Part shown: in pieces, positions 14,206-54,315 of the stretch
How the letters are laid out: each line of letters starts with the position of its first letter
Position numbering within the stretch: the stretch's first letter is position 1
From: a virus
Reading direction: 5' to 3' (one strand)
IMG/VR virus record: IMGVR_UViG_3300042975_000098
Length of the DNA stretch: 64,000 nt
Notes under the pieces: generated by a model
What the model saw: only the letters and a program-made list of their open reading frames with translations
Told to the model about the DNA's origin: nothing
The model's database searches: none
Program-made: the position numbers and the translations under genes

Positions 14206-15438
14206 ATGGATTTCAGCGAGCGCTACAAGCGGATGGACCGTTACACGAGGCTTGTCATCGACAGTCTCATCGCCGGCATCAAAGCGCATCAGAGCCAGAT
14301 GCTCGTCGCCAACCCCGGTACCGGTAAATCGGCGCTCGTATACGATCTCGCGAAGAACTTCCTGGGCTATGACGTCATCACCATCGTGGGCAGTCAGAAG
14401 GAGCCCACCGACATCACGGGGTTCCCGAAGACCGTGGGCAAGCCGCTGCCGAACGGCGACACCGTGAGCGTGACCGAGTACGCGATGGCCGAATGGCAGT
14501 TCAGGATACTGCAGACGCCCAAGCTGGTGCTGTTCCTTGATGAGTACTCGAACAGCAAGCCAGATGTTCAGGCGGCGCAGCTGCAGATCATCAACGAGCG
14601 CGTGTTCCCCGACCTGACGCCGGTGCCGAAGCAGACCGTCATCATCGGGGCCATGAACCCCGTGGAGACGGCCGCCGACGGGTACGAGATATCATTGCCG
14701 TCCGCGAACAGGATCAAGTTCATACCATGGGAGCCAAGCTTCACGTCATGGAAGAACGGGCTGCTCGACAACTGGGGGTCGCCCGACGCGATCAGCGCGG
14801 AGGAGATGAAATGGCGCCGGCGCGTGGTGGAGTTCCTCGGCAGGAACCCGGCGCTCGTGTACAAGCTCCCCGATGGCAAGGCGACGGCGAACGCGGGCTC
14901 CGTCTACGGCTTCGGCGGCTCGCCGGCGCAGGCGGACATATACAAGACCGCGTACCCGTCCAACCGCTCGTGGACGAATCTGGCGCGTGAGCTCCAGTAC
15001 TGCGAGCGCGGCGATAAGAAGTACACCTATGATCTCATCGAGCTCTCGGCGCGTGGCATCGTCGGGTATGAGGCCACGCGCAAGTTCATGGACTACCTGA
15101 TAAAATCCGATGACCAGACGCCCGACCTTCCGAACATCCTGCAGGACCCGTCGATCGTCAACTGGGCGGGGATGAACGGGAACACCAGAATCGGTCTGGT
15201 CCGAAGCCTTATGGATTACGTGCTGTCCACCGAGGCGCGCGTCGACCAGAAGAAACGGCTCGCGCTAGGCGTCCGGTTGTTCAGTTATCTTGGCAACCAC
15301 GATCAGGCCGCGCTCGTGGCCGGCTATCTGCAACGGCTCATCCAGGCGCTCGGCAACAACGACATGATCTCGGAGAGCCGGGAGCTTATACGCGTCCCCG
15401 CGTTCAAGGCCATGATGGGCCGGATGAGGGGAAGGTGA
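14206..15438 (+). CDS. MoxR/dynein-related AAA+ ATPase
   Basis: ANPGTGKS, EPTDITGFP, LFLDE, GAMNP, ANR, PSNRSW; ATG 14206 chosen because the longer ORF starts inside the repeat. Confidence 0.85.
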   Translation: MDFSERYKRMDRYTRLVIDSLIAGIKAHQSQMLVANPGTGKSALVYDLAKNFLGYDVITIVGSQKEPTDITGFPKTVGKPLPNGDTVSVTEYAMAEWQFRILQTPKLVLFLDEYSNSKPDVQAAQLQIINERVFPDLTPVPKQTVIIGAMNPVETAADGYEISLPSANRIKFIPWEPSFTSWKNGLLDNWGSPDAISAEEMKWRRRVVEFLGRNPALVYKLPDGKATANAGSVYGFGGSPAQADIYKTAYPSNRSWTNLARELQYCERGDKKYTYDLIELSARGIVGYEATRKFMDYLIKSDDQTPDLPNILQDPSIVNWAGMNGNTRIGLVRSLMDYVLSTEARVDQKKRLALGVRLFSYLGNHDQAALVAGYLQRLIQALGNNDMISESRELIRVPAFKAMMGRMRGR

Positions 15439-15445
15439 TCGCGCC

Positions 15446-16855
15446 ATGGCTTCGAATCTGACCGACGAGCAGCGCGCGGAATGGTCGGCGGCCGTCGCCG
15501 GCGCGGAGCTCAGCGCCTCGGAACTCAGCGTCGGCCTGGCGTCGATGGTGCCGTTCGCGTCGACCGTTGTTCGCGTGTCGGCCATCGATGAGTACTGGCG
15601 CGTGGCGCTCGGCCCCGGTTTCTGGCGATACCCGGAGCGCGAGCGGGAGGCGATCGTCATCCACGAATGCCTTCACGTGGTGTGCAACCATCACGCCCGC
15701 GCCAGGATAGCGCACCAGTCGGATGCCAAGACATCCAACATGGCGCAGGACCTTGAGATCAACCAGCTTATCACCACGCTGCCAAGGGTCCATCTTCCCG
15801 ATGATGCGCTCATGCCCGGTGAAACGCTGCGCGTCCCCCGGAACCGCACCATGGAGGAGTACTACGGCATTCTGTCCGACGGCGATGGCGATGGGGACGG
15901 CGGTGATGGCGCGGAGTCCAGCGAAGCATCGTCCGGCGCCGGCCCGAAACCGCCAGCGGACGCCGGCGGCGAGTCCGATGACGATTCGCGGTCGGATGCC
16001 GACGGGTCGCAAACGGGCGGCGGCGATGGCGGCCAGCGGGATCGCGGGCAGGGCACCCATGGAGGTCCTGGACCATGTGACGGCGACCGCGGCATGGAGG
16101 TCGAGAACGAGGCCGACGCGATCGGCATAGGGAAGCTTGATGGAACGAACCAGTCGTTCGCCCGCCAGCAGGTGGCCGAGGACACCCGCAAGTCGATGGC
16201 GCATGGCACGGGGTCCATGGATGGCTCCTTCGCCGCGCGGCTGCTTGACGGCATGAAGCCGCCGAGGGTCAACTGGCGCGAGGTGCTCACCCACGCGTAC
16301 TCAAGAGAATACTCGAAGGCCGCGAGGCGCTGTATCGACTATTCCTACAAGCGGGTGAACCGTCGCGGCACGGCGTTCGCCTCCGATCTCGTGTTCCCCG
16401 GACTCGTCGGCAGATCGCCCCGGACCATGGTCGCCGTGGACACCTCCGGCTCCATGGGCGAGAGGGATTACGACGCGATGCTCCGCGAGGTGTCCGCGCT
16501 GCTCAAGGAGGTGTCGCATTCCGAGAAGAACTCGATCGTGTTCTTCTGCGTGGACACGAAGATGAAGGACCCGGACCTGGTGACGGATATCGCCGACATC
16601 GATCTCAAGGGAGGAGGCGGCACCGACATGGCACCGGCGTTCGCCTACGTCAGCGGGCTGTCGCGCTCGAAACGCCCGGACGTGTTCGTGCTGGTGACGG
16701 ATGGCGGGTTCGACTGGAGCCGGTTGGAGAGGTCATGGCCGGCGGGCGTGAAGGTCATCATCGCGTTGACCTCCGACATGTCGCTGGGGTCGATCCCGGC
16801 GTTCGTGAGCGAGAACGCCACCGTGGTCGTCATCGGTGATTCCGCGCGCCGCTGA
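15446..16855 (+). CDS. Metallopeptidase-like (HExxH) plus VWA domain protein (DUF2201-type)
   Basis: IHECLH, NMAQDLEIN, WREVL, VDTSGSM (MIDAS), GGGGTD, VTDG; adjacent to the AAA ATPase. Confidence 0.85.
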   Translation: MASNLTDEQRAEWSAAVAGAELSASELSVGLASMVPFASTVVRVSAIDEYWRVALGPGFWRYPEREREAIVIHECLHVVCNHHARARIAHQSDAKTSNMAQDLEINQLITTLPRVHLPDDALMPGETLRVPRNRTMEEYYGILSDGDGDGDGGDGAESSEASSGAGPKPPADAGGESDDDSRSDADGSQTGGGDGGQRDRGQGTHGGPGPCDGDRGMEVENEADAIGIGKLDGTNQSFARQQVAEDTRKSMAHGTGSMDGSFAARLLDGMKPPRVNWREVLTHAYSREYSKAARRCIDYSYKRVNRRGTAFASDLVFPGLVGRSPRTMVAVDTSGSMGERDYDAMLREVSALLKEVSHSEKNSIVFFCVDTKMKDPDLVTDIADIDLKGGGGTDMAPAFAYVSGLSRSKRPDVFVLVTDGGFDWSRLERSWPAGVKVIIALTSDMSLGSIPAFVSENATVVVIGDSARR

Positions 16856-16930
16856 GCGTCTCTCCGTCACCACCATGCGGTATAATAAGGGTGTTAGCGA
16901 AGCGGGCAGATCGCCCGCGGCAGGCAAGGA

Positions 16931-17884
16931 GTGATGATGGCAGATACGTTCATGAGGACCCCGTTCGTCTCGCATGATCAGCCGGATGCGGATGGCGTCC
17001 GCGCGGAGGTCATGGTGCAGACCGGCGTGGCCATGGTCGCGTCGGTGGACAGCAATGGCAAGAACGCCAAGGTGGAGCTGAAGGCCGATAACCAGAAGTA
17101 CACGGTGAAGACGTGGATGACCCCCGGCAACAAGGCGTTCGACATTCTCGATGACGCCTATAAGAACAACAAGCCCATCAACGTCCGCGTCGAGCAGCGC
17201 AGGCTGAAGAGGAACCGCGACACGAAGGAGCCGATTCTTCGCTCGACCCCCATCAGGGAGCTTCTCGTGGACCCCACGACCCATAAGCAGACGAACGACC
17301 TGGCCCGCCGCAACGCGGTGAAGACGCTGGTCGGCGTCGCTCCCGTGGACGGCGACATGGAGTTCACCGGCGAGGAGGTGACGCTGCCATCCGAGGACCC
17401 GCAGGAGGGTTCGCACGCCGGCGTCATGTCATCGAACCCGGTGACCTCGACGCCGCCCGCCGGCTACCATTCCGATGGCTATGAGGCCCAGCCGTGGAAG
17501 GGCACGAACAACGATGGCACCGTGAACGCCGGCGCGTATGGCGTGGGCGCGGCCGCCGGGTTCTACTTCCTCGCGTTGGAGCAGAACGCGAAGATCGGCG
17601 ACGCGCTGGCGAAGACGTTGGCGTCGAAGCTGATGGTGGTGTGCGATTACATGCAGAAGAAGGTGTATGACGGCCGTCAGGAGTACGCCGAGCGGAACGC
17701 CGCATCGCATCTTCGCGCGCGCGAGGTGGTCACCGAGGTCATCAAGAGCCGTCTGCAGATCACCGATGAGGTCCTTGCCTCCAGCGAGTCGCTGGGCGAG
17801 TGGCTGAAGAAGGTTCTCGCCGCCTCCGAGGAGATATACCAGTGGGCTTACGAGGATTACGGGAAGTCCATCGCCAACCGGTGA
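16931..17884 (+). CDS. Hypothetical protein
   Basis: TATAAT at 16881-16886, SD AAGGAG; strongly biased codon usage. Confidence 0.7.
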   Translation: MMMADTFMRTPFVSHDQPDADGVRAEVMVQTGVAMVASVDSNGKNAKVELKADNQKYTVKTWMTPGNKAFDILDDAYKNNKPINVRVEQRRLKRNRDTKEPILRSTPIRELLVDPTTHKQTNDLARRNAVKTLVGVAPVDGDMEFTGEEVTLPSEDPQEGSHAGVMSSNPVTSTPPAGYHSDGYEAQPWKGTNNDGTVNAGAYGVGAAAGFYFLALEQNAKIGDALAKTLASKLMVVCDYMQKKVYDGRQEYAERNAASHLRAREVVTEVIKSRLQITDEVLASSESLGEWLKKVLAASEEIYQWAYEDYGKSIANR

Positions 17885-35047: not shown

Positions 35048-35479
35048 ATGGATGACGAGCAGACTTCGGTGAGCACGATACCGGTGTACGTGTTCACCGA
35101 GTTCTTCAACCGCGAGGCGCAGATGTACGCGCTCGGCGACATACCGCTGCGCAAGCCGAAGTCCATCAAGGCCATGATCTACACCATCGTGCTGTTGCTG
35201 ATCTATAGTGTGCCGATGCTGTTCATCGTGGGCATAGGCACCGTTCTCACCGGTCCGATCCCGGCGGCGATCGTCTTCGGGCCGCCGTTGGTCGCCGGCC
35301 CGTTCGTATCGAAGCCGAACTTCCATAACAAGACGTTCATGAAGCACATGACGGCGATCGTGAGGTGGATGGGGCTGGCGGACATGTACTGCGACATGCG
35401 GGAGATGCAGTACGCGGAATCATCGTCCGCCGATATCGGCCTGTGGCTGGCCAACGATAGCGATATTCACCATGCATGA
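35048..35479 (+). CDS. TcpE/VirB3-like conjugation membrane protein
   Basis: YVFT.FF.RE..MY..GDI.L.KP, two TMs, coupled to the VirB4-like ATPase. Confidence 0.65.
   Translation: MDDEQTSVSTIPVYVFTEFFNREAQMYALGDIPLRKPKSIKAMIYTIVLLLIYSVPMLFIVGIGTVLTGPIPAAIVFGPPLVAGPFVSKPNFHNKTFMKHMTAIVRWMGLADMYCDMREMQYAESSSADIGLWLANDSDIHHA
35461..35467 (+). promoter_or_regulatory. YGATATT-N8-ATG motif (VirB4 C-half)
   Basis: GATATT at 35462-35467, ATG 35476. Confidence 0.7.
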
Positions 35480-36648
35480 GAAACAATGAACCTGAGTGGG
35501 TGGGGCCGCTTGTAGGTGTGAACCTGCAGGGGTACCCCACCCCTTTCATGTTCGATCCGCATTCCAGCATCAACTCGCCGCTGAGCAAATCTCATTCAAG
35601 CGGCATCCTCATCACCGGTGGTCCGGGTTCCGGGAAATCGTTCCTTGGCTATACGCTGGCGATGATATCGGCGATATCCGGCAAGGACACCATCATCGTC
35701 GACCCGAAGAACGATGCGCGTAACATAATCAAACTGTCCGATGAACTGGATGGTCTCGTCCATTCCATCGACATGAGCTCCGGCGGGCAGAACGGGGCGA
35801 TGGACCCGTTCGTCAGCGACAAGGATCGCGCCGAGCGCGTCGCCCGCGTCTCCAATCTCACGAAGATCCTCCTGGGCGATCTCGATTCCGAGGAAAGCAC
35901 CGGTCTGTACGCGAAGATACAGGACGTGGCGAACATGCCCGACCCGTCCCTCAGCCTGCTCTGCGACGAACTCGCGAGGAATCAGAACCGCAAGGTATCG
36001 AATCTTGGCATACGACTGAAGAAGATCGGCAAGTCGGACCCCAAGGTCGGCAGCGCCATCTTCCGTTCCAGCCGCGCCCGATCCCGACCGCAGAAGATAG
36101 GCAAGGGACTCACCATCATCACCACGCTGGGCATGGATATACCCAACGAGGGAACGGACGCGAGCATGTACACCGACCAGAACCGTCTCGCCATGGGCAT
36201 CATGTATCTCATCGCCAACTACCTGTGGGATACGGTATCCGACCCATCCCAGTACGATCTGCCCAAGACCATTCTCATGGATGAGGCATGGGCGCTGCTC
36301 GCCACGCAGCAGGGCCTTGAAATCGCGAACACCATTCTCCGCAAGTCCAGATCGTTCAACGCCGTGCTTATCCTCATGACGCAGAACATCAAGGAGATCA
36401 ACGATTCCGATTTCCAATCGCTCATGTCCACGCGATTCGCGTTCCACGCCGACGACCCGGATACGGAGGGTCGGGAACTATGCAAGTCACTGCGAATCGA
36501 CCCCGGTTACGCGCAGACGTTCCCCGACCTGGCGCAGGGGCAGTGCTTCGTACGCGATTACAAGAACCGCGTGTCAGTCATCCAGATCATAGAGCAATCA
36601 CCGTTATGGACGCGTGCGTTCGACCCGCATTCGGGATCGAGGGTATGA
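35476..36648 (+). CDS. VirB4-like ATPase, C-terminal ATPase half only
   Basis: ITGGPGSGKS, IVDPKND, MDEAW, RKSRSFN..TQN, GQCFVRD; only 390 aa. Confidence 0.85.
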   Translation: MRNNEPEWVGPLVGVNLQGYPTPFMFDPHSSINSPLSKSHSSGILITGGPGSGKSFLGYTLAMISAISGKDTIIVDPKNDARNIIKLSDELDGLVHSIDMSSGGQNGAMDPFVSDKDRAERVARVSNLTKILLGDLDSEESTGLYAKIQDVANMPDPSLSLLCDELARNQNRKVSNLGIRLKKIGKSDPKVGSAIFRSSRARSRPQKIGKGLTIITTLGMDIPNEGTDASMYTDQNRLAMGIMYLIANYLWDTVSDPSQYDLPKTILMDEAWALLATQQGLEIANTILRKSRSFNAVLILMTQNIKEINDSDFQSLMSTRFAFHADDPDTEGRELCKSLRIDPGYAQTFPDLAQGQCFVRDYKNRVSVIQIIEQSPLWTRAFDPHSGSRV

Positions 36649-43835: not shown

Positions 43836-45593
43836 ATGGTCGAACTGAGCGTGGATGATGCGAAGCGCGAGATCAAGGAACGGGTGAGTCTTGTCGACTT
43901 CTTCCGCGGCAACGGATTCGAGCTGCGGAAGAAGGGCGGACGATACTGGGCGCTGTGCCCGTTCCATGACGAGAAGACGCCATCGTTCTCCGTCAACGAC
44001 GAGACCCGCTCCTACCATTGCTTCGGCTGTGGCAAGAGCGGTGACGTGTTCACCTACATGGAGGAGAAGGAGAACCTGTCGTTCATGGAGGCCGTGGATA
44101 GTCTCGCCGCCGGCCTTGACATTCAGCTTAAACGAACCCAGCGGGACGAGAACGAACCCGATAGGAAGACCCTCCTGCGCATCGTCAAGGCGACCGCCGC
44201 ATGGTACTGGCAGCGGTACGCCGAACTTCCAGAGGATCACCCGGCGAAGATCGAGGTGTCCAAGCGCGGCCTGTCCACCGACAACAAGGATCACTATGAC
44301 CTCCTTGGCTGGGCGCCCGAGAACTCCAAGTCGCTCATCGACCATCTCCATTCGCTTGGTTTCAAGGATGATGACATGGTGGCATCCGGGGTGATCAGGC
44401 GATCGGATGACGGCAGACTGTACTCGCTGCTGCGAGCGCGGCTCACGTTCGTCATCACCGACATCCTCAACCGTCCCATCGGGTTCAGCGGGCGTCGCAT
44501 ATTCGGCGACACGAAGGACCGCAAGTACGTGAACTCACCGGACTCGACGCTGTTCCACAAGGCCGGCGTGCTGTTCTGCGAGTCGATCGCGAAGAAGCAG
44601 GCGGCCAAGGACCACGAGATGTTCGTAGTGGAGGGGCAGTTCGACGTGCTGGCGATGCAATCGGTCGGCAAGACGAACACGGTCGCGTCATCGGGCACGG
44701 CGTTCACGGAATCGCACGCCGGCCTCATGCGCCGGTTCGTCGGCGAGAAGGGGCGCGTGGTGTTCTGCTTCGACGCGGATGATGCGGGGCAGGCGGCGGC
44801 GATGAAGGCGTTCGTCAACCTACCCAGCCTACAGGGGCAGGCGTACGCGACGATCACGAAGGACAAGGACCCCTCGGACATGTACCGTGATGACCCGAAG
44901 AGTCTGCTGAACCAGGTGAGCACCATCACGCCACTGTGGAAGCACGTGCTGCTGCATGTGGTCGGCCAGCATGACATGACCACCGATCAGGGTCGCAAGG
45001 CGTTCATCGTGGACTTCGCCAAACTGTACGAGGCCACCACCGACTCCTACACGGCCGACTCCATGTTGAAACTCGCCTCCGTGCTGTCCAGCGTGCCCGT
45101 GGACGTGCTGTCATCCAAGGGACGGTCGCAGACCGCCGCCGAGCCGACGGCCCCCATGATCGATGCGGTCGAGACCGATACCGGGGTGGACGCGCTCGTG
45201 GACAATCTGCTGGCGCTGATGCTGGAGAACCCGGATCTGAGGTCGAGACTGCCGGAGGTCGATCTGCGCGGCGTGCGCGCCCGCAGGTTCGCCCTGTGGA
45301 TGACGAATCATCAGAACGTCAAGGTGATCCCCGAACTGTTCGCCGGCACGGCGGCGGAGGCGTACGTGCGCCGGCTGGACGCGCTGGCGCAACGGCTGCA
45401 CGAGTATGACGAGTTCATGATCCCCGCCGACCCTGCGGAACTCTTCGAGCAGCAGAAGACCATCATCGCACGCGAGCAGGTGCGTCGACGGACAAGGGAC
45501 GCGCTCCTGTCGACGGCGGCAACGGCCGACAGCGCCGACCCTGATGTCCTCGCCGCCGTCGAGGACAAGGTGAGACGTTCCCGTGCGTCATGA
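43836..45593 (+). CDS. dnaG: DNA primase
   Basis: CPFHDEKTPSF..YHCFGCG zinc finger, GFSGR, KYVNSP, VEGQFDV, FDADDAG, KDP. Confidence 0.95.
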   Translation: MVELSVDDAKREIKERVSLVDFFRGNGFELRKKGGRYWALCPFHDEKTPSFSVNDETRSYHCFGCGKSGDVFTYMEEKENLSFMEAVDSLAAGLDIQLKRTQRDENEPDRKTLLRIVKATAAWYWQRYAELPEDHPAKIEVSKRGLSTDNKDHYDLLGWAPENSKSLIDHLHSLGFKDDDMVASGVIRRSDDGRLYSLLRARLTFVITDILNRPIGFSGRRIFGDTKDRKYVNSPDSTLFHKAGVLFCESIAKKQAAKDHEMFVVEGQFDVLAMQSVGKTNTVASSGTAFTESHAGLMRRFVGEKGRVVFCFDADDAGQAAAMKAFVNLPSLQGQAYATITKDKDPSDMYRDDPKSLLNQVSTITPLWKHVLLHVVGQHDMTTDQGRKAFIVDFAKLYEATTDSYTADSMLKLASVLSSVPVDVLSSKGRSQTAAEPTAPMIDAVETDTGVDALVDNLLALMLENPDLRSRLPEVDLRGVRARRFALWMTNHQNVKVIPELFAGTAAEAYVRRLDALAQRLHEYDEFMIPADPAELFEQQKTIIAREQVRRRTRDALLSTAATADSADPDVLAAVEDKVRRSRAS

Positions 45594-45597
45594 TATT
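45591..45597 (+). promoter_or_regulatory. YGATATT-N8-ATG motif (VirB4 N-half)
   Basis: GATATT at 45592-45597, ATG 45606. Confidence 0.7.
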
Positions 45598-45605
45598 CTA
45601 CGAGC

Positions 45606-46940
45606 ATGGCCAACATGAAGAAAATAGTCCCGCCGCCCATCGCCATCGTCGATAACATCGTGTTCTCGAAGACCGAGGCGTGGGCGTTCTGGAACCTGCC
45701 GCTGACGGCCTACGACTTCCTGTCGATGCAGGGGAAGTCGGCCATCCTCGCGCAGGATTCCAACGCGCTGATCTCGCTCATGAAGGGGCGTGACGAGCCG
45801 GTGGACTGCAAGCTCATCCTCACGAACAGCCCGTTGGACGTGAACCACTGGGAGGAGAACTACATCGCCCTGTCCTCGACGTGGAACCACCGGTCGGGTT
45901 TCGACGAGTTCATCAGGAACCAGATCGACCTCATGAAGCACGAGTACAGCTTCGTGGATAAGCGGGTGTTCTTCGGCGTGAAGCTCAACAACCGGCTCGC
46001 CCTCGATTTCGACGCCATCAACCCGTTCCAGAAAGGGTTCAAGGATGCCATGGAGTACACGAAGCGGTTCCTCAACTCGATGCTCGCCGTCCCCAACAAC
46101 GTCATTCCCGACGAGGAGATAGAACGGGAGCACGCGCTTGAGGAATCGTACAATACCATCATCTCGAACAGCGCACTCAATGGCGTTCGCTCGACCACCG
46201 AGGAACTCGCCCTGCTCATCAAGCAGACGCTGTACCCCGCCATGCCCGTGCCCAACATCCAGCTTGAAGACGATAGCCGCTGGGGGGCCGGCGACGCGTA
46301 TGAGGACCTGATAAGCGACATCAGACCACGGGAGAACCCGAAGTACATTCGCATCAACCAGACCATCGGCGGACGCCCCTACACCGGCTACCGGGCCACG
46401 CTCACGTTCAAGTCGTTCCCGCCGAAGATGCAGCCGCCCATCAGCGAACCATGGATATACTATTCCGTCAACAGCGGCGTGTCCAACCCGTTCGACGTGT
46501 TCTCCACGTTCACCATCGTCCCCAACGCCGTCATCCGCAAGGAGATCGAGAAGAACAAGAAGATCCGGCAGGATGGCTTCGACAACGCCACGAAAGCGGG
46601 AGTCGACCCGTCATCGGAACTCGTCAGCGACCTCGATGAGGCCACGGAGCTTGACGCGTTCGCCGCGCAGAACCACCAGCCATGGGTGAAATCGACCACG
46701 AGAATGGTGCTCACCGCCAGCAGCGTGGAGCAGCTGGAGAAGGACGCCGAGACCATGATCCAGAAGTACGGCGACCGCGGCGTCGGCATCAAACTCATAT
46801 GGACCACGCACGATCAGGTGGACCTGCTGCTGGAATCCATGCCCGGCGCGAACCTCATGGAGAAAAGCTTCGTCCAGATGTCCACGATGTCGCTCATCTC
46901 GGCATCCGGCTTCAACGTGTACAACGAGATCGGCGACTGA
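45606..46940 (+). CDS. VirB4/TcpF-like protein, N-terminal half (no Walker motifs)
   Basis: DNIVFS..EAWA...LP...YDFLS, FFGVKL, Q..LLLESMPG, ends ..EIGD. Confidence 0.65.
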   Translation: MANMKKIVPPPIAIVDNIVFSKTEAWAFWNLPLTAYDFLSMQGKSAILAQDSNALISLMKGRDEPVDCKLILTNSPLDVNHWEENYIALSSTWNHRSGFDEFIRNQIDLMKHEYSFVDKRVFFGVKLNNRLALDFDAINPFQKGFKDAMEYTKRFLNSMLAVPNNVIPDEEIEREHALEESYNTIISNSALNGVRSTTEELALLIKQTLYPAMPVPNIQLEDDSRWGAGDAYEDLISDIRPRENPKYIRINQTIGGRPYTGYRATLTFKSFPPKMQPPISEPWIYYSVNSGVSNPFDVFSTFTIVPNAVIRKEIEKNKKIRQDGFDNATKAGVDPSSELVSDLDEATELDAFAAQNHQPWVKSTTRMVLTASSVEQLEKDAETMIQKYGDRGVGIKLIWTTHDQVDLLLESMPGANLMEKSFVQMSTMSLISASGFNVYNEIGD

Positions 46941-46941
46941 C

Positions 46942-47502
46942 ATGGGTTGGAAGGGAAGCCTCGCCGCGCTGCTGACCGGCGCGATCATCGCCGCGGCGTT
47001 CATGCTCGGCATGAACGCCGCGGGCGTCGGCGCGTGGACCGTCGTCGGCTCGTCCATGGAGGATACGCTCCACTCCGGCGACATCGTGTTCGGGGAGCGC
47101 CGTCCCGCCGCCATCGCCGTCAACGACGTCATCGTGTTCACGGACGCCGGCGACTGGAGCGGTTCCACGAGAAGCCACATCATCAAACGGGTCATCGCGG
47201 TCGCCGGCGACCGCGTGCGAATAGACGCGCGCGGCGTCATCACCGTCAACGGGAAACGCCAGCATGACGTGCACGGCGAGTACGCGATGTCCTGTCAGGC
47301 GGCGCCGATCGACATGACGATACCGGCCGGCCGCGTGTTCGCGCGCGGCGACAACGCCAGCGTCTCCGATGACAGCCGGTACCAGGCGTGTAACGGGGAC
47401 GTCGCGAACGCGCTCGTCCCCGTTGCCGACGTGATGCTACGCGCCGGCGGGTTCCGTCTGCCGATAGGCTCATGGGCGAACGCCATAGAGGAGGCCTTGT
47501 GA
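46942..47502 (+). CDS. Signal peptidase I (S26)
   Basis: GSSMEDTL..GD, IKRVIAVAGD, GDN...SDDSR. Confidence 0.9.
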   Translation: MGWKGSLAALLTGAIIAAAFMLGMNAAGVGAWTVVGSSMEDTLHSGDIVFGERRPAAIAVNDVIVFTDAGDWSGSTRSHIIKRVIAVAGDRVRIDARGVITVNGKRQHDVHGEYAMSCQAAPIDMTIPAGRVFARGDNASVSDDSRYQACNGDVANALVPVADVMLRAGGFRLPIGSWANAIEEAL

Positions 47503-47504
47503 CC

Positions 47505-48674
47505 ATGTTCCCGAGAATGCTGCTCATAGCCGCCATCGTCTACACGATAGGCGTGCTCGTCATCGTCAACATCGCGCTCGGCGTGGTCGACCGGGTGGCG
47601 GCCGACAGGGCCGCGCAGTCCCGTGATCCCACGCCGCCGAAACGCCGGCGACACGCGTTCTCCGAGAGCCTGCGGAAAGCGCTCGCCGACGATCGCCTGC
47701 TCCCGATCACCAGGAGCGTCGGCGAGACCGATGACCAGGGCAAGCCGGTGATGGACGGCAAGGGCAAGCCGAAGAAGACGAAGGAGTACGTGCTTGAGAA
47801 GCACGACGCGTACGGCATCCTCATCGACCCCGGGCGCGGCGCCCTCACGTGGCGCAAGCTCTACGCGGCGCTGCTGGTAGCGTCCGTCATCATCACGGCC
47901 GCCGGCGTGATCTCGCCGGCGCTCTACGGGGTGGGGTTCATGGCGTCGCTCGTCATGGACTCGCTCATCATCCATAACGGCGGGAAGCTGATCGCGGCGG
48001 AATCGAAGGCGTTCGACGACGTGCTGGCGATATCCCGGCTGAAGCTCGGAGCCGACGCCACGGACCCGCATGAGATCATCAACATCACCGACTGGGAGTT
48101 CGCCGGCGAGGCCGCCAGCATCGCGAACGGCACCGTGAGGGCATCGGAGGACGGTCAGACCGAGGCCATCGCCAAGGAGGTCGATGCGTATAGTAAGGGG
48201 CATAGGCCGCGGATAGCGAGGATACGCGACGTGCCGGCGGCGATGACGATCGCGTTCCCCATCTCGTTCATGAAGTCAAGCACCGACGCGTTCATCACGC
48301 ACATCAACCAGAACGTCGGCGGCGGCACCGTGGAATGGGTGGCGCAGAAGCGGACCAGCCAGCCGGATGGCTCGGTGAGGATAGAGAACGGCTGGGACTT
48401 CACGGCGCGCATGGTGACGTTGCGGACGATGCCGCCGCTCCCGGACATGGCGAAGCTTCCCATGGACATCGGGGACGGGCCATGGAACGCGATACGACTC
48501 GGCAAGACCGTCGAGGGCGAGGCCGTGTGGGATCTGAGCGGTCAGGGCGGGTCGGTGAACGGCCGCCCGCTCCACGGCGGCGGCGTCGGCGTGACCACCC
48601 CGATGTCGCTGGTGCCGCTGGCCACGGACACGAAGGTCATCGTCGTGGACAGCCGCCATGATTCACGTCCATGA
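47505..48674 (+). CDS. FtsK/SpoIIIE-like membrane ATPase N-terminal fragment ending in a short split-intein N-part
   Basis: TMs, PPLP..A, IRLG...GEAVWD, TPMSLV (pre-Walker A), then PLATDTKV..*. Confidence 0.65.
   Translation: MFPRMLLIAAIVYTIGVLVIVNIALGVVDRVAADRAAQSRDPTPPKRRRHAFSESLRKALADDRLLPITRSVGETDDQGKPVMDGKGKPKKTKEYVLEKHDAYGILIDPGRGALTWRKLYAALLVASVIITAAGVISPALYGVGFMASLVMDSLIIHNGGKLIAAESKAFDDVLAISRLKLGADATDPHEIINITDWEFAGEAASIANGTVRASEDGQTEAIAKEVDAYSKGHRPRIARIRDVPAAMTIAFPISFMKSSTDAFITHINQNVGGGTVEWVAQKRTSQPDGSVRIENGWDFTARMVTLRTMPPLPDMAKLPMDIGDGPWNAIRLGKTVEGEAVWDLSGQGGSVNGRPLHGGGVGVTTPMSLVPLATDTKVIVVDSRHDSRP
48615..48671 (+). mobile_element. Split intein N-fragment (19 aa, Pro-initiated block A)
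   Basis: PLATDTKVIV matches block A (xLxxDTxV/I); too short to be certain on its own. Confidence 0.6.
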
Positions 48675-48678
48675 TATT
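48672..48678 (+). promoter_or_regulatory. YGATATT-N8-ATG motif (cpaB)
   Basis: GATATT at 48673-48678, ATG 48687. Confidence 0.7.
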
Positions 48679-48686
48679 ACCCACGC

Positions 48687-49793
48687 ATGTTCAAGAAGAA
48701 GTCGGTAGACATAGATGCGGCGCCAGCTGCCGCCAAGCAATCAGCATCGCTCAAGGACAAGCGGCCGTTGTGGTTCCTGTTCTTCGCGCTGGCTATCATC
48801 GCAGCGTTCTCGACATGGCTGATACTCAACACCGTGTCCAAGCAGGACACGTATTACGTGCTGTCCCACGCCGTCGCGGCGCAGACGAAGATCACGACCG
48901 ATGACGTCACCGCGCAGACGCTCAGCGGGCAGAAGCCGCCGAACGCGCTGACCGTATCGGACATCCAGCAGGGCAACGTGTACAGCAAGTACCCGCTGAA
49001 CGCGGGCGATGTCCTCGCCGGGTCGAACGCGGGCACGTTGGACTCGTTGAACGAGGGCATTCCCGACAACTGGGTCATCACGTCGTTCACGGTCGCGTCC
49101 GATGACATGCCGACAAGCCTGCAGCGAAGCGATTACTTCGACATGATCGTGCCGGCGACCTCGGCGGTGTCCGACGCGAAGACCGAGCAGGTGCAGGCCA
49201 CGAAGTACCTGTTCCGCAACGTCATGGTTCTGCAGACGTCGGCAACCACCGCAGGAACCGCCGACGCCGCCAAGAACGGGCAGGCCGCGAGTTCATCGGG
49301 GAGCGACAACTCGGCGAACGTGACGCTCGTGGTAGGCATGTCGCCGAAGAACGCCGCGATTCTGCAGACCGTCATGAACCAGAACTACAACGTGAAGCTG
49401 GTCATCTCCCCGAAGCAGACCACGTATCAGGACCCGACCACGCTGAACGGGCTGTATGACTTCGATTACCAGCAGGTGGTGGATGATGCGGTCGACCCGG
49501 CCAAGCCGAGCATCGTGGCATCGCAATGCACGAAGAACAACGGTGCGGACGAGAACAAGAACTGCACCGATCCGACGTTCACCACGACGAAGCGCGATGC
49601 GTTCGGCGTTCCCTACAACGCCAAGGCGTCCGACCTTGACGAGAACGGCGATGTGAAGAAACTTACCGATTTCGAGAAGGAATGGTGCCAGCAGCTCTAC
49701 TCCAACGACTACTACAACGGCAGCAAGTGGGAGTCGGCCAAGGCGTACTGCGCCAAGGGCGGCGTGAAGTCCGGCGAGTCATCGGCCGAGTAG
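48687..49793 (+). CDS. CpaB/RcpC-like SAF-domain Flp pilus assembly protein
   Basis: TM, SAF-like YYVL...V.A...IT..D..PPNAL..PL.AGDVL, NVMVL. Confidence 0.75.
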   Translation: MFKKKSVDIDAAPAAAKQSASLKDKRPLWFLFFALAIIAAFSTWLILNTVSKQDTYYVLSHAVAAQTKITTDDVTAQTLSGQKPPNALTVSDIQQGNVYSKYPLNAGDVLAGSNAGTLDSLNEGIPDNWVITSFTVASDDMPTSLQRSDYFDMIVPATSAVSDAKTEQVQATKYLFRNVMVLQTSATTAGTADAAKNGQAASSSGSDNSANVTLVVGMSPKNAAILQTVMNQNYNVKLVISPKQTTYQDPTTLNGLYDFDYQQVVDDAVDPAKPSIVASQCTKNNGADENKNCTDPTFTTTKRDAFGVPYNAKASDLDENGDVKKLTDFEKEWCQQLYSNDYYNGSKWESAKAYCAKGGVKSGESSAE

Positions 49794-49814
49794 TATCGTG
49801 TCGTCGCGCTGAAT

Positions 49815-49847
49815 AACGGCGGCCCGTCATGATGGCGGGCCGCCGTT
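49815..49847 (+). terminator. Hairpin terminator
   Basis: aacggcggcccgtcat/atggcgggccgccgtt. Confidence 0.6.
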
Positions 49848-49919
49848 CCATGTCGTGAGCGATATTCTATTGACGCCCGCGGTATACTGTTATGGCACGG
49901 CGTTATAAGGAGTGGAAAC

Positions 49920-51455
49920 ATGACATCAGGAAAGGCGAAGGCCCTTTTCATCGGGAACCATGACACATGGTCGGCTCTTCAGAAGACCATGCGCCCCGAA
50001 TGGGATTGGCAGCAGCCGATCGACAATGTATCCGTCTTCGCCTCATGGTTGCGCGGCGAGGACGTCAAGATGCCGTTCGAGATCAGCGAGGACACGTCGA
50101 TCATAGTCATCTCGACCGAGTTCTACAAGGCCGGACTCAACCCGAAGCCGCAGTACGCCAAGCTCCGTGATGACTTCCTCGCCGCGGTCGCGTACTCGTC
50201 CAGTGAGACGATGTGCATGGTTCTTAACTACTGGCCTGAGCTGCAGAAGCGCATCCAGCAGGATATCGTCATGTGGGGGCAGGACCACCGGTCCGAGGAC
50301 GTCACCATCGGTAAGTACTACTGGGTGCAGTCCTCACGACCTAACGCCTACATCGACAGGGCCATAACCGAGTACCTGTCGGACCCGGAATCGGACCCCA
50401 CGGCCAAGATGATCGTCGCCGAGAGCGAAGGGCTCCAGCTTCCCTCGGCCACGCCGGAGACGAAGACGGCCGAGGTCGAACCGGCGCCCGGCGAGTTCTC
50501 GGATTACATGACCGAGGACACAGATTCCAAGCCGTTCACGAACTCGTTCGGGCGGAACGCGCTGATCGTCGCGAGCACCTCCACCAAGGGCGGGGTCGGC
50601 AAGACCACCATGGCGATGCTGACGGGAACGTGGTTCGTCCGGTCGAGCGACCTCGCCGTGAGGAACGGTTCGCTCAAACAGCCTCTCAAGGTGTGCATCG
50701 TAGATCTGGACATGAAGGACACGCAGATAGCGACCATGCTCAACCTCACCGCGCAGTCCGCTAAGAAGAACGTCATGCGCATCATCGGGTCGCCCGTGTT
50801 CACCGATAAGACGGTCGCCGACAACCTCGTGTACGACAAGCGCATGAAGTGCTGGTTCCTCCTCGGACCCAAGCAGGCGTCCAACGCCGCGGCGATCAAA
50901 CCGTCCAAGTACGCCCAGATATTCGGCGTGCTCCAGCGCATGTTCGACATCGTCATCATGGATACGTCAGCGGCCCCCATGGGGGTGAAGCTGTTCTCCG
51001 ATGTCGTCTACCCGATGGCGAATGAGATCATGTTCATCACTTCGCTGGACAGGCGTTCGGTGGTCGGCATGTCCAAGTGGATCATAGCCGAGGGAAGCCC
51101 GAAGGAGCATGGAGGCAACGGCATCGCCCTTGATAAGATGAAGATCGTCATCAACGTCAACAACGGCAGCGATGTGGAGATGAGCGCCGAGGAGATCCAG
51201 AACTCCATCAAGTTCCCGCTGGTGACCGTGTACGGCAAGTTCCCCACGAAGATGGCCGAGGAGGAATGGAAGAAGCCGCAGCTTGTAGGGGTGGTGAAGT
51301 ACATGGGTTCCACGATCACGAAATGGTCCAACCTCCAGGAGATGCCGATGGCGCTGAACACGCCGACGCTGGAGCGTTCGATCTCCAACATATGCCGGTC
51401 ACTCGTCCCGAAGTCACTCGCGGACATTCTGCCGAACATCGAGAAGGTCGAGTAG
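49920..51455 (+). CDS. CpaE/TadZ-like ParA/MinD family ATPase
   Basis: STKGGVGKTT, VCIVDLD, FDIVIMDT; follows cpaB; GATATT at 49861 and TATACT at 49883 upstream. Confidence 0.8.
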   Translation: MTSGKAKALFIGNHDTWSALQKTMRPEWDWQQPIDNVSVFASWLRGEDVKMPFEISEDTSIIVISTEFYKAGLNPKPQYAKLRDDFLAAVAYSSSETMCMVLNYWPELQKRIQQDIVMWGQDHRSEDVTIGKYYWVQSSRPNAYIDRAITEYLSDPESDPTAKMIVAESEGLQLPSATPETKTAEVEPAPGEFSDYMTEDTDSKPFTNSFGRNALIVASTSTKGGVGKTTMAMLTGTWFVRSSDLAVRNGSLKQPLKVCIVDLDMKDTQIATMLNLTAQSAKKNVMRIIGSPVFTDKTVADNLVYDKRMKCWFLLGPKQASNAAAIKPSKYAQIFGVLQRMFDIVIMDTSAAPMGVKLFSDVVYPMANEIMFITSLDRRSVVGMSKWIIAEGSPKEHGGNGIALDKMKIVINVNNGSDVEMSAEEIQNSIKFPLVTVYGKFPTKMAEEEWKKPQLVGVVKYMGSTITKWSNLQEMPMALNTPTLERSISNICRSLVPKSLADILPNIEKVE

Positions 51456-51510
51456 CCGACGACGCGCGCACGAGTGCGTATCGAAGAGCAGCGGGGAGAG
51501 GAACTCGTAC

Positions 51511-52296
51511 ATGATTGATCTTATGGACATCGAGAGCACCGATGTCGTCGACGAACGGCGCGCCCGGATAGTCCATGACGCCATCGCCAAGGGCAAACGT
51601 CATTTCGGTGTGGCCGGCGCATCCCTCACATGGATGAACTCGCCCAAGCAGAAGGAGATGCTGCCCGAGGGATGGAAGCCCAAGATACTCGAGGAGGCCA
51701 TGCTCGCCGAGCAGAGGACGTCGGACACGCTGCGTGACTGGATCAAGGACAAGCCATCCGCCGTGCTCATCGACAGCACGCACATCCGCGGACTCGGCAA
51801 GGAGCGCATCGACAAGGACACCGGTCTCATCGAGGGCGGCGACACCGATCACGTGCTCATCATCGGCGGGGCTATCTTCATCATCGACACGAAGAACTGG
51901 CGCAAGAAGGCGACGTACACGGTCAGTGACAAGGGCGCGGTTCTCAGGAACTCCAAGACGTTCCCGGGAGGGCGGGTCCATATCGAACGAGCGGTCCACA
52001 TGTGGCTCGATTACGTCGACCCGATCATCGATGACGTGTCCATCAAAGGCGCCATATACATCAACAACGACGATGACGAGACCACCAGGGTGTTCCGCGG
52101 CCCGACATGGTACAAGCATCACTGGTTCCTTCTCGAACACTCACGGTTCATCAAGTGGATGGACGAGAGCTACGCCGCGCTCAGCGACACGGACAGGAAC
52201 ACCATCGACCCGACCATGATCGCCGAAGTGGCGCAGTGCTGCGTGAAGCCATACAACCGCCGCGACGGGCTCATCAACACGAAGGCGCTCCGCTGA
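51511..52296 (+). CDS. NERD-like nuclease
   Basis: DTDHVLIIGGAIFIIDTKNW. Confidence 0.75.
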   Translation: MIDLMDIESTDVVDERRARIVHDAIAKGKRHFGVAGASLTWMNSPKQKEMLPEGWKPKILEEAMLAEQRTSDTLRDWIKDKPSAVLIDSTHIRGLGKERIDKDTGLIEGGDTDHVLIIGGAIFIIDTKNWRKKATYTVSDKGAVLRNSKTFPGGRVHIERAVHMWLDYVDPIIDDVSIKGAIYINNDDDETTRVFRGPTWYKHHWFLLEHSRFIKWMDESYAALSDTDRNTIDPTMIAEVAQCCVKPYNRRDGLINTKALR

Positions 52297-52336
52297 CGTT
52301 CGCCGACCAACCCGTCGATCGCGCATATTGATCAGC

Positions 52337-52370
52337 AGGCGACCCCGTTCCATGGAACGGGGTCGCCTTT
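52337..52370 (+). terminator. Perfect 32-bp palindrome plus short T run
   Basis: aggcgaccccgttcca/tggaacggggtcgcct then tt. Confidence 0.7.
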
Positions 52371-52459
52371 CCATAAGCATCGCCGCCGGCGCGTCGATGC
52401 CATGGCCAAGAGTACCATGTGAACCATAAGATCATTCCACACGAGGAAAGCGGGATTCC

Positions 52460-53179
52460 ATGTACGACGCGAACGGCCAGCACGCGATGATCACCAAGGC
52501 GGAGGCGCGCGCGGTTTTGAAAATCGTCGGCGACACGACAGCGGACAGGATCGCCAAAGGCAAGACCATAAACCCGACGTTCCACTCGATCATGCCGTTC
52601 GCCAGCGACGAACGACGCCCGTCGGATGGCATACCCGACACCACGGAGCCATACGGGTATGCCTACATCACGAACCGATTCGCCATCGTTCGCTGGCGAA
52701 TCGATATCGACGCGGCTCGCCGACATCTCGCCGACGGGGAGACCATCAGCGAGCAGGCGCTCTCCGCCGCGATCAAGGTCATGCGAAGCTCCGAGCGACT
52801 CAATCTCAATGATGATGCGCTGTGGTCGGCGGGCGAGGGGTTCGACAGGGAGATACCACGCTCCGTCGACCTGAGCTTCGAGCACATCGCCGGGTCGGCG
52901 AGCGCGACCGCAGACGACCGTCAACACATGTACGCGCTTCGCTTCCCCGGTGATGATGGCTCCGGGCTGAGCAAGCACGCCGACGATGGTCATGACCGGT
53001 TCGACGTGAACACGATCATGATGTCGAAAGCAGGCGCCGCCATCGAGCCGCGGGCGCGCGTCCACGCATCGCTGATCACGATGAAAGGCGGCATGACCGC
53101 CATTCGACTCGACCCCTATGAGCGCCATGACGGCGTCGAGGTGGAGGCGTTGCTGCTTGGCATGACCCCACATCGGTGA
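52460..53179 (+). CDS. Hypothetical protein
   Basis: 239 aa ORF between the terminator and repeat copy 3. Confidence 0.55.
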   Translation: MYDANGQHAMITKAEARAVLKIVGDTTADRIAKGKTINPTFHSIMPFASDERRPSDGIPDTTEPYGYAYITNRFAIVRWRIDIDAARRHLADGETISEQALSAAIKVMRSSERLNLNDDALWSAGEGFDREIPRSVDLSFEHIAGSASATADDRQHMYALRFPGDDGSGLSKHADDGHDRFDVNTIMMSKAGAAIEPRARVHASLITMKGGMTAIRLDPYERHDGVEVEALLLGMTPHR

Positions 53180-53202
53180 TATCGCCATCGGCAACGGCCG
53201 TT

Positions 53203-53331
53203 TACGTCGATTACGCTCATACGATAAGCAAACGCTTGCCGTGTGAGCGTATTTTTTATGCGACGTCGGGAAAACGCCGTTTTCGATGCCACGGTCACAA
53301 AACCGCGTTTCCGTGTTCTACGTGGCTTACA
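53203..53331 (+). repeat. 129-bp dispersed intergenic repeat, copy 3 (core inverted)
   Basis: 53220-53243 is the exact reverse complement of 41466-41489 while the flanks are co-oriented. Confidence 0.9.
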
Positions 53332-53349
53332 GCACGCGCCGGCGCCGAA

Positions 53350-53356
53350 CGATATT
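53350..53356 (+). promoter_or_regulatory. YGATATT-N8-ATG motif (FtsK C-fragment)
   Basis: GATATT at 53351-53356, ATG 53365. Confidence 0.75.
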
Positions 53357-53364
53357 GACCGGTC

Positions 53365-53499
53365 ATGACAGACGGCATGGAGACATTCACCCTTGAGGAC
53401 ATCCACGAGATCGACGCCGATGACGATCTCGTGTGCATCAGCGTCGACTCGCCCGGGCACGAGTTCCTGATAGGCGACACGCTCGTCCCCACGCACAAC
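53365..53499 (+). mobile_element. Split intein C-fragment, class 3 type (45 aa)
   Basis: Block F LVCISVDSPGHEFLIG with Cys, block G VPTHN with Thr-His-Asn, +1 Ser. Confidence 0.88.
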
Positions 53500-54315
53500 A
53501 GCGATGACACCGCCGATCTGAAATCCGAGGCGCAGTCGATCGTCGGCTCGATCGCCCGACTCGGGCGAGCGGCCGGCGTGTTCCTCACGCTGGCCACGCA
53601 GCGCCCTGATGCGAAGATGCTCCCCGGCGAGACCAAGGCCAACCTCGGAGCGCGCATCGCCTGCGGGCAGATGAACGCGACCGCCAGCGACATGGTTCTC
53701 GGCAGCGGCAGCGCCGTGTCGACGCCTGGGCATCCGAAGGGCCGAGGCATATACAGCGACTACGGGGCCGAGGAGAAGATGCAGATATACTTCGCCAACG
53801 AAACGTGGATCGATCAGTGGCTCAAGGACCACAACATGAACCCGGACGGCTCGCCATTGTCATCGGGCCCGGCGTCGCTGCTCCCGGACGAGGAGGACAT
53901 CGCACGCCTGCGCGGCACGCACCTCGACGAGATGGAGGGCGTCGACAACAGCGAGTACAAGGCCGAGTTGAAGAAGAAGGACGCCGAGGTACGCGCCGAG
54001 CACGCCCGCAGACTGGCCGAACTGAACGGCGAACCAGTCGACGACGATGACATCGATGACGGCATATCGGACGATGACGCCGTTGACGGCGACGTCGAAG
54101 ACGCCGCGGCGCCGATGCCGAGCGAGCCAGAACTTCCGCCGATGGTCGACGGGATGAAGCGTCCGAACCTCACGGGCGGCGATGGCAAGAAGACGGAGAA
54201 CCCGTTGGACGAGTGGGATGACACCATGGGCGAACTCTACGCGCCGGCCGACGCCGAGGGCGACGACCTCATCACCACGGGCGACGATGAGGATGAGGAT
54301 GAGGATGACGACTGA
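53365..54315 (+). CDS. Split-intein C-part fused to FtsK/SpoIIIE C-terminal fragment
   Basis: ..VPTHN|S, then IARLGRAAGVFLTLATQRPDA, GETKANL, KGRG; no Walker A or B; acidic tail. Confidence 0.85.
   Translation: MTDGMETFTLEDIHEIDADDDLVCISVDSPGHEFLIGDTLVPTHNSDDTADLKSEAQSIVGSIARLGRAAGVFLTLATQRPDAKMLPGETKANLGARIACGQMNATASDMVLGSGSAVSTPGHPKGRGIYSDYGAEEKMQIYFANETWIDQWLKDHNMNPDGSPLSSGPASLLPDEEDIARLRGTHLDEMEGVDNSEYKAELKKKDAEVRAEHARRLAELNGEPVDDDDIDDGISDDDAVDGDVEDAAAPMPSEPELPPMVDGMKRPNLTGGDGKKTENPLDEWDDTMGELYAPADAEGDDLITTGDDEDEDEDDD

Follow-up and report, generated by a model that had tools for sequence, protein, structure and literature searches.

How can an FtsK-type ATPase be produced when its gene stops just before the P-loop and resumes beyond the Walker B motif with four unrelated genes lying in between? 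This question is raised by a viral sequence, IMG/VR record IMGVR_UViG_3300042975_000098, in the form of a stretch of 64,000 nucleotides (nt), hereafter the window. The element that carries the window appears to be a mobile element of about 347 kb with a Tcp-like transfer apparatus. An earlier sequence-only reading had proposed that the ATPase is divided among three genes whose products are joined by two splicing reactions of class 3 split inteins. Our analysis favours a different partition, in which the ATPase is probably encoded by four separate genes, denoted N, L, M and C, and made whole by protein trans-splicing through three split inteins of the class 3 kind, denoted a, b and d. The features of the N and C genes in the window, where IntN and IntC denote the N-terminal and C-terminal pieces of a split intein and lengths are in amino acids (aa), are as follows.

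47505..48674, plus strand: open reading frame (ORF) of the N piece, 389 aa from the start at 47505, which matches the public gene call, or 400 aa from an alternative ATG at 47472.
47505..48614, plus strand: extein of the N piece, with two hydrophobic segments and the pre-P-loop region, ending ...TTPMSLV.
48615..48674, plus strand: IntN-a, the 19-aa N-piece of split intein a, with block A and with Pro as its first residue, followed by the stop codon.
48687..53179, plus strand: four intervening genes (CpaB/RcpC-like, ParA/TadZ-like, NERD-domain and one of unknown function), outside the ATPase.
53365..53499, plus strand: IntC-d, the C-piece (45 aa) of intein d, a split class 3 intein, with the block F cysteine at position 24 and block G Thr43-His44-Asn45.
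53500..54315, plus strand: extein of the C piece, which begins with Ser+1, continues through what remains of the FtsK-type ATPase domain (ARLGRAAG, ATQRPD) and finishes in an acidic tail.

The N ORF runs through ...TTPMSLV into PLATDTKVIVVDSRHDSRP (19 residues starting PLATDTKV) and then a stop codon, and the C ORF (316 aa) opens with 45 residues ending ...VPTHN, followed by Ser and the ARLGRAAG and ATQRPD region. A six-frame motif scan detected no Walker A in either ORF, a Walker B is likewise absent from both, and no Pfam family was matched when each ORF was searched alone. The four genes between them yielded only weak Pfam matches (RcpC/CpaB, a ParA-like P-loop protein and NERD, with one of unknown function) and no similarity to FtsK or to inteins was found in them. 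The description given by the sequence-only reading of an N ORF that stops before the P-loop with a block-A-like tail, of a C ORF that joins an intein C-terminus to a post-Walker-B ATPase, of four unrelated genes between the two and of the absence of both Walker motifs from both fragments was thus accurate, and its further claims that the two ORFs belong to one FtsK-type ATPase and carry class-3-type pieces at both junctions are supported by the relatives described below.

The intein-like ends of the two ORFs are not chance resemblances: relatives hold complete inteins at exactly both host sites, with either the same opening block A or the same closing blocks F and G. At site a, which lies after ...LV, the block A of the window opens the complete intein a of P0283, P0279, P0281 and L018. 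In P0283 and P0280, a single chain carries the N domain, a complete intein a with this block A, the sequence CGS-TGGGKS and the ATPase. The full-length relative P0285 carries no intein, and PLATDTKV is not present in its sequence, which excludes the possibility, raised by the sequence-only reading itself, that PLATDTKV is ordinary extein. Among ten relatives of the N piece, P382, L383 and T387 are invariant, and there is no conservation past about 10 intein residues. At site d, hundreds of stand-alone relatives of the C ORF share the same opening 40–45 residues, and complete inteins starting Ala-Leu occupy the site in P0134, P0142, P0079, P0117, P0127 and about fifteen others, with block B G..H.W, the block F cysteine and the terminal T-H-N all invariant. 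P0146 and P0017 carry no intein at site d and their host sequence is uninterrupted.

Structural predictions, made for complete natural homologues at the same host sites rather than for the split pieces themselves, are consistent with this assignment. The model of complete intein a (P0283; predicted local distance difference test score, pLDDT, 85.5) matched best to the class 3 DnaB inteins 6RIY and 6BS8, with target template modelling (TM) scores of 0.82–0.86, and the AlphaFold model of complete intein d (P0134; pLDDT 63) to the class 3 DnaB inteins 6RIX and 6BS8; both models thus adopt the predicted Hint (horseshoe beta) fold. The catalytic residues are also those of class 3, namely a block B tryptophan, a cysteine at block F position 4, a threonine at block G position 5 and a terminal His-Asn. 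As judged from sequence positions, the W-C-T positions of intein d are divided between M, which carries block B (NHDW), and the IntC-d of the window, with Cys24, Thr43, His44 and Asn45. IntC-b carries His11, Trp13 and Cys64, with Ser replacing Thr before His-Asn. Residue 1 is not a nucleophile in any of the three, being Pro382 in the IntN-a of the window, Ala in the IntN-d of M and Pro in the IntN-b of the L pieces. The catalytic positions are kept across lineages that are 35–57% identical; near-identical variants, examined in a comparison of nonsynonymous and synonymous substitution rates (dN/dS), differ by only 0–6 changes.

Two other explanations for the sequences near site a were rejected. 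The segment TDTKVIVVD is not the FtsK strand that follows Walker A, since both intein-free relatives and those with complete inteins place it within intein a, and the glycine-rich insert before TTPM is not a substitute P-loop, since it is also present in relatives having an L gene. Some of the complete inteins are enlarged. That of P0280 (1106 aa) carries a Ser/Thr/Asn-rich low-complexity insert of about 250 aa between its lobes (residues about 480–760), and larger versions of intein d carry about 110 extra residues at the split point of the window intein (alignment A4, columns about 150–280), including an ELLxGIFG-like motif resembling a degenerate LAGLIDADG endonuclease.

Neither a middle nor a linker piece is encoded within the 64-kb window. 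A search with the core of P0017 revealed a family of proteins of about 320 aa, one cluster member of which, P0248 (322 aa), corresponds to the M piece. Its first 87 aa are IntC-b, which opens with block B and closes with ...SHN; an extein of 107 residues then extends from TGGGKS through Walker B to ...GGGK, and a 128-aa IntN-d that starts Ala-Leu and carries block B NHDW completes the chain. P0248 scores 34.9 bits against the Pfam FtsK_SpoIIIE family PF01580, for which the cut-off is 24. P0248 is recorded on one contig, of 347,100 nt; the sole contig carrying the exact N protein of the window, and the longest contig carrying the exact C protein, are also of 347,100 nt, and M very likely resides on the same element as the N and C genes of the window. 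The middle gene anticipated by the sequence-only reading, with an IntC, a GxxGxGK..DE core and an IntN, therefore exists as P0248, with TGGGKS..DE as its core. On a sister contig (346,143 nt; 3300051660, Ga0527070_018) the M gene lies at 121.3 kb. It is flanked there by IS605-type TnpB genes, one with a resolvase (L011:8341-9801 and 15297-17125), and these elements may account for the distance of M from N and C in this element, in contrast to the adjacent pieces of the relative L034.

Joined together, the three exteins of N, M and C give 759 aa, and this sequence is collinear both with P0146 (53% identity) and with an unsplit FtsK protein from Rhodococcus (E 1e-22). The alignment of joined exteins with unsplit homologues, which the sequence-only reading had recommended, gave a divided answer, with the junction between M and C seamless against the intein-free P0146 and that between N and M lacking exactly three residues of the P-loop (Walker A). 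The P-loop region contains neighbouring insertion sites, with site b three residues on from site a, before TGGGKS; other lineages use further sites. The tail of N carries the signature of intein a and the IntC of M is located at site b and starts from block B, and therefore the two do not look like cognate halves. The atypically short IntN proposed by the sequence-only reading is present, as the 19-aa IntN-a, but the proposal that it pairs with the long IntC of M is not supported.

In P0279, P0281 and L018, a complete intein a is followed by CGS and then by an IntN-b of about 60 aa, which breaks off immediately ahead of block B. We predicted a gene in which IntC-a and IntN-b are linked by three residues, and it was then found standing alone in three relatives, as follows.

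L022:1417-2316, minus strand: L gene of G001 (419,707 nt, with terminal repeats), a 299-aa ORF, E 5e-33.
L034:5114-5791, minus strand: L gene on a contig of 111,568 nt, the closest lineage on a long contig.
L036:6285-7118: L gene on a contig of 491,046 nt, 3 kb upstream of M.

All three L proteins show the arrangement ...PTHN, CGG, PL..T.... In G001, about 3.6 kb separates L from M, C follows after roughly another 8 kb, and N is encoded on the opposite strand at a distance of about 104 kb; in L034 the N, L, M and C genes all fall inside 11 kb. The order primase, TcpF-N-half-like ORF, signal peptidase, N in L034 is that of the window. The N pieces of G001 and L034 carry the same short tail as in the window, of 19 aa again in L034. 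When the four exteins of L034 are aligned with the intein-free P0285, no gap remains in the P-loop, whereas the three exteins of the window leave the three-residue gap there. The inteins are inserted in frame, with site d seamless against P0146 and sites a and b of L034 seamless against P0285. Because the hole left in the P-loop by three exteins is filled by an L gene in three relatives, four pieces and three splicing reactions appear more likely than the three pieces and two reactions originally envisaged.

In the proposed assembly, piece N would contribute the membrane domain and the 19-aa IntN-a. Piece L, seen in the three relatives and predicted here, would consist of IntC-a, the three extein residues CGG and IntN-b, and piece M, about 180 kb upstream of N, would provide the 87-aa IntC-b, the sequence from TGGGKS through Walker B and the 128-aa IntN-d. 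Piece C would add the 45-aa IntC-d and the remaining ATPase. With a non-nucleophilic residue 1 (Pro in a and b, Ala in d), splicing would begin with attack on the upstream junction by the block F cysteine, proceed by transfer of the acyl group to the Cys, Thr or Ser at +1, and conclude with cyclisation of the terminal Asn. Direct observation extends to the pieces and motifs, to the occurrence of the pieces together and to the collinear exteins; we infer splicing itself from the conserved catalytic residues, and the order of the reactions and an L gene in the element of the window are predictions.

Several observations weigh against this scheme. No L gene was found for the element of the window in the 64-kb window or in the sister contig from 101.5 to 142 kb, which takes in 10 kb past either end of L011; together these make up about 30% of the element. 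A metagenome scan for L genes returned only L018, where the N piece carries a complete intein a, plus one irrelevant locus, a scan of GTDB genomes returned none and a viral scan only G001, and none of these scans reached the element of the window; a query of a scan index by L-piece sequence likewise gave none. Moreover, the co-residence of M with the window is deduced from the matching sizes of 347,100 nt, the tail of the window carries Ile at the position of the block A Trp of its relatives, and Pro at intein position 1 is unusual, with no documentation found in the literature searched.

An alternative reading, which we consider unlikely, is that there are three pieces only, such that the 19-aa tail of N pairs with the 87-aa IntC of M to form an ultra-small intein, about 106 aa in all, and the mature P-loop has three residues fewer than usual. 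Just three pieces have been observed in this element, functional IntN pieces are known down to 15 aa (PMC10189870), and cross-pairing is conceivable for inteins that are all paralogous. However, such a pair would lack, between blocks A and B, the entire hairpin and strand that IntN-b supplies in the relatives, the signature of the tail is that of intein a and not of IntN-b, a three-residue gap would be left in Walker A, and an L gene is present in all relatives of identical N and M architecture. A complex prediction for the N tail (residues 335–400) with IntC-b plus the M core gave a score of 0.00 and weighs neither way.

It is improbable that the pieces dock through their intein halves, without splicing or with cleavage only, to yield a non-covalent multi-subunit ATPase. 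Split-intein halves bind tightly even if inactive and ligation is, in this work, deduced from sequence. Nevertheless, the block B His and Trp, the block F Cys, the terminal His-Asn and the +1 nucleophile are kept in every intein and in distant lineages, and pure docking modules need none of these catalytic residues; furthermore, a P-loop twice interrupted by bulky domains would be unlikely to bind nucleotide.

Finally, it is very improbable that we are looking at the decaying and non-functional remains of a gene riddled with inteins, left for instance once the L gene had been lost, as might be suspected from the failure to find L in the 30% of the element searched, the TnpB elements flanking M and the dispersal of N, M and C over about 185 kb, since these three genes are intact and near-identical across many samples without frameshifts, all catalytic residues are kept, and each gene retains the transfer-regulon motif described below.

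The identity of the host protein was examined at several levels. The C piece shows 35% identity to a Rhodococcus plasmid FtsK/SpoIIIE protein and can be aligned with plasmid proteins of this family from about residue 36–47 to 156, and the N piece is collinear with unsplit FtsK-type proteins as far as the strand preceding Walker A. In P0283 and P0285 the N-piece domain and the ATPase core are fused in a single chain, and the features of an FtsK/SpoIIIE domain (PF01580), namely Walker A, Walker B and the downstream ATQRP region, are present only across the pieces jointly. The best structure matches of the intein-free P0285 are 6O1W-6O1Z, annotated as 'DNA translocase coupling protein' (E 2e-23), followed by the FtsK motor 2IUS (E 5e-21); 6O1W-6O1Z are TcpA of pCW3. 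Two further ORFs of the window correspond to the two halves, N and C, of TcpF, a conjugal ATPase. Because P0285 matches 6O1W-6O1Z best and the window carries TcpF halves, the host protein is best regarded as a coupling ATPase of TcpA/FtsK type that belongs to a Tcp-like transfer system. It resembles TcpA coupling proteins and FtsK in the structural matches of P0285 and in the split TcpF-like ATPase and pilus genes near the window pieces, but the known members are single intein-free polypeptides and the ATPase of the window is in pieces.

The TcpF/VirB4-like conjugal ATPase is itself encoded by two genes, in reverse order and about 9 kb apart (window 35476-36648 and 45606-46940), with no intein pieces. 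An ORF of 444 aa covers positions 6–428 of the TcpF profile and one of 390 aa, which has Walker A, covers positions 468–794.

A sequence motif, GATATT-N8-ATG, is shared by the genes for the pieces and by the pilus and transfer genes of the window. It occurs seven times in the window, where 0.17 occurrences would be expected by chance.

45592..45608, plus strand: promoter-like motif that heads the operon TcpF N-half, signal peptidase, N piece.
53351..53367, plus strand: the same motif, immediately 5' of the C piece.
11497, 13046, 32366, 35462, 45592, 48673 and 53351: all positions of the motif in the window, each of them where a pilus or transfer gene starts.

Both TcpF-half genes are preceded by the motif, and it also lies 5' of M on the sister contig and, in L034, 5' of the N operon, L, M and C. 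It is likely to be an element-specific promoter or leaderless-start signal, and its sharing fits co-expression of the pieces with the pilus and transfer genes.

Other products encoded in the window include DnaB, Pol III alpha, GyrB, an SbcC-like protein, TadA, DnaG and NrdD. The NERD (nuclease-related) domain protein between N and C (window 51511-52296) scores 22.7 in Pfam against a cut-off of 22.1 and is borderline; no connection of this protein to inteins was found. IMG/VR relatives of the element are records of 310–420 kb, one of which has direct terminal repeats. The N piece had no protein match in plasmids or phages and the DNA of the region no match in plasmids.

To our knowledge, natural protein trans-splicing is known only as two-piece joins. 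The inteins whose split is atypical and leaves a short IntN, PolB16 OarG and VidaL, belong to class 1 and carry Ser or Cys at position 1. Intein a resembles them in its break just after block A and in an IntN of about 12–19 aa, and the VidaL structure 6VGV turned up in the structure search with the complete intein a model. It differs in the Pro at position 1, the class 3 features and a long partner whose gene ends with half of another intein. The IntN of PolB16 OarG is 15 aa long (PMC10189870).

The literature describes a single natural split class 3 intein, AceL NrdHF, and none was split among the 1701 class 3 inteins in that paper (PMC7891396). Intein d (128 + 45 aa) is of this type: its position 1 is Ala, block F holds the cysteine, and the split falls where an endonuclease is usually inserted. 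The host gene of AceL NrdHF is 'fractured' into two pieces that are separated by an endonuclease gene; in contrast, the present protein would carry three class-3-type split inteins, with halves up to about 185 kb apart and the canonical W-C-T in intein d. The fractured phage genes of Dassa et al. (2009) are likewise essential genes of mobile elements broken at an intein and rejoined by trans-splicing, each in two parts with a free-standing endonuclease gene between them, and later dispersal was foreseen in the model of that paper (PMC2677866). Here, however, there are three or four parts, one of which gives just three residues, and no endonuclease gene lies between cognate halves. The N and C genes of the window hold halves of different inteins, and the only gene of an endonuclease family between them is the borderline NERD gene.

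Tandem trans-splicing of three segments (PMC12707363, PMC7210297) and three-fragment inteins (bioRxiv 10.1101/2023.01.30.526203) have been engineered. These share with the present system the logic of a middle segment placed between the IntC and IntN of two orthogonal split inteins, but are laboratory constructs. According to the abstract of the preprint, natural inteins were known only in one-gene or two-gene forms (bioRxiv 10.1101/2023.01.30.526203). No natural protein made from more than two intein-bearing genes was found in the limited literature searched, where absence is not proof.

We are inclined to believe, a little less firmly than we hold the four-gene assembly itself, that this is a natural protein formed from four polypeptides by three mutually specific class-3-type split inteins, with an adapter that donates only three P-loop residues and an ATPase that forms only if all four motif-sharing genes are co-expressed, and that a related element, G002, may go further with one intein in three genes (15 + 208 + 40 aa). 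In G002, the candidate three-piece intein is encoded at L028:976-2406, L024:1483-2109 and L031:1060-2271. The N gene ends with just 15 intein residues after ...TGGGK, a distant M+C gene opens with a 40-aa IntC, and a stand-alone ORF of 208 aa, devoid of extein, holds only the part between blocks A and F, in which block B (GNHLW) is included. G002 also encodes a DnaB-type helicase (L023:811-3114) whose P-loop is interrupted by a complete class-3-type intein (GK, ALSLDT ... VPTHN, T), and this intein has a large middle insert.

If the four-gene reading is correct, inteins can fragment a gene far past two parts with function retained. The element would also provide a natural set of presumably orthogonal split inteins for multi-fragment protein ligation, including an N-piece of 12–19 aa for which a cysteine at the N terminus is not required and a novel break point immediately ahead of block B. 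Moreover, a testable regulatory idea would follow, in which the coupling ATPase, by which a giant element is committed to DNA transfer, exists only upon co-expression of four dispersed genes.

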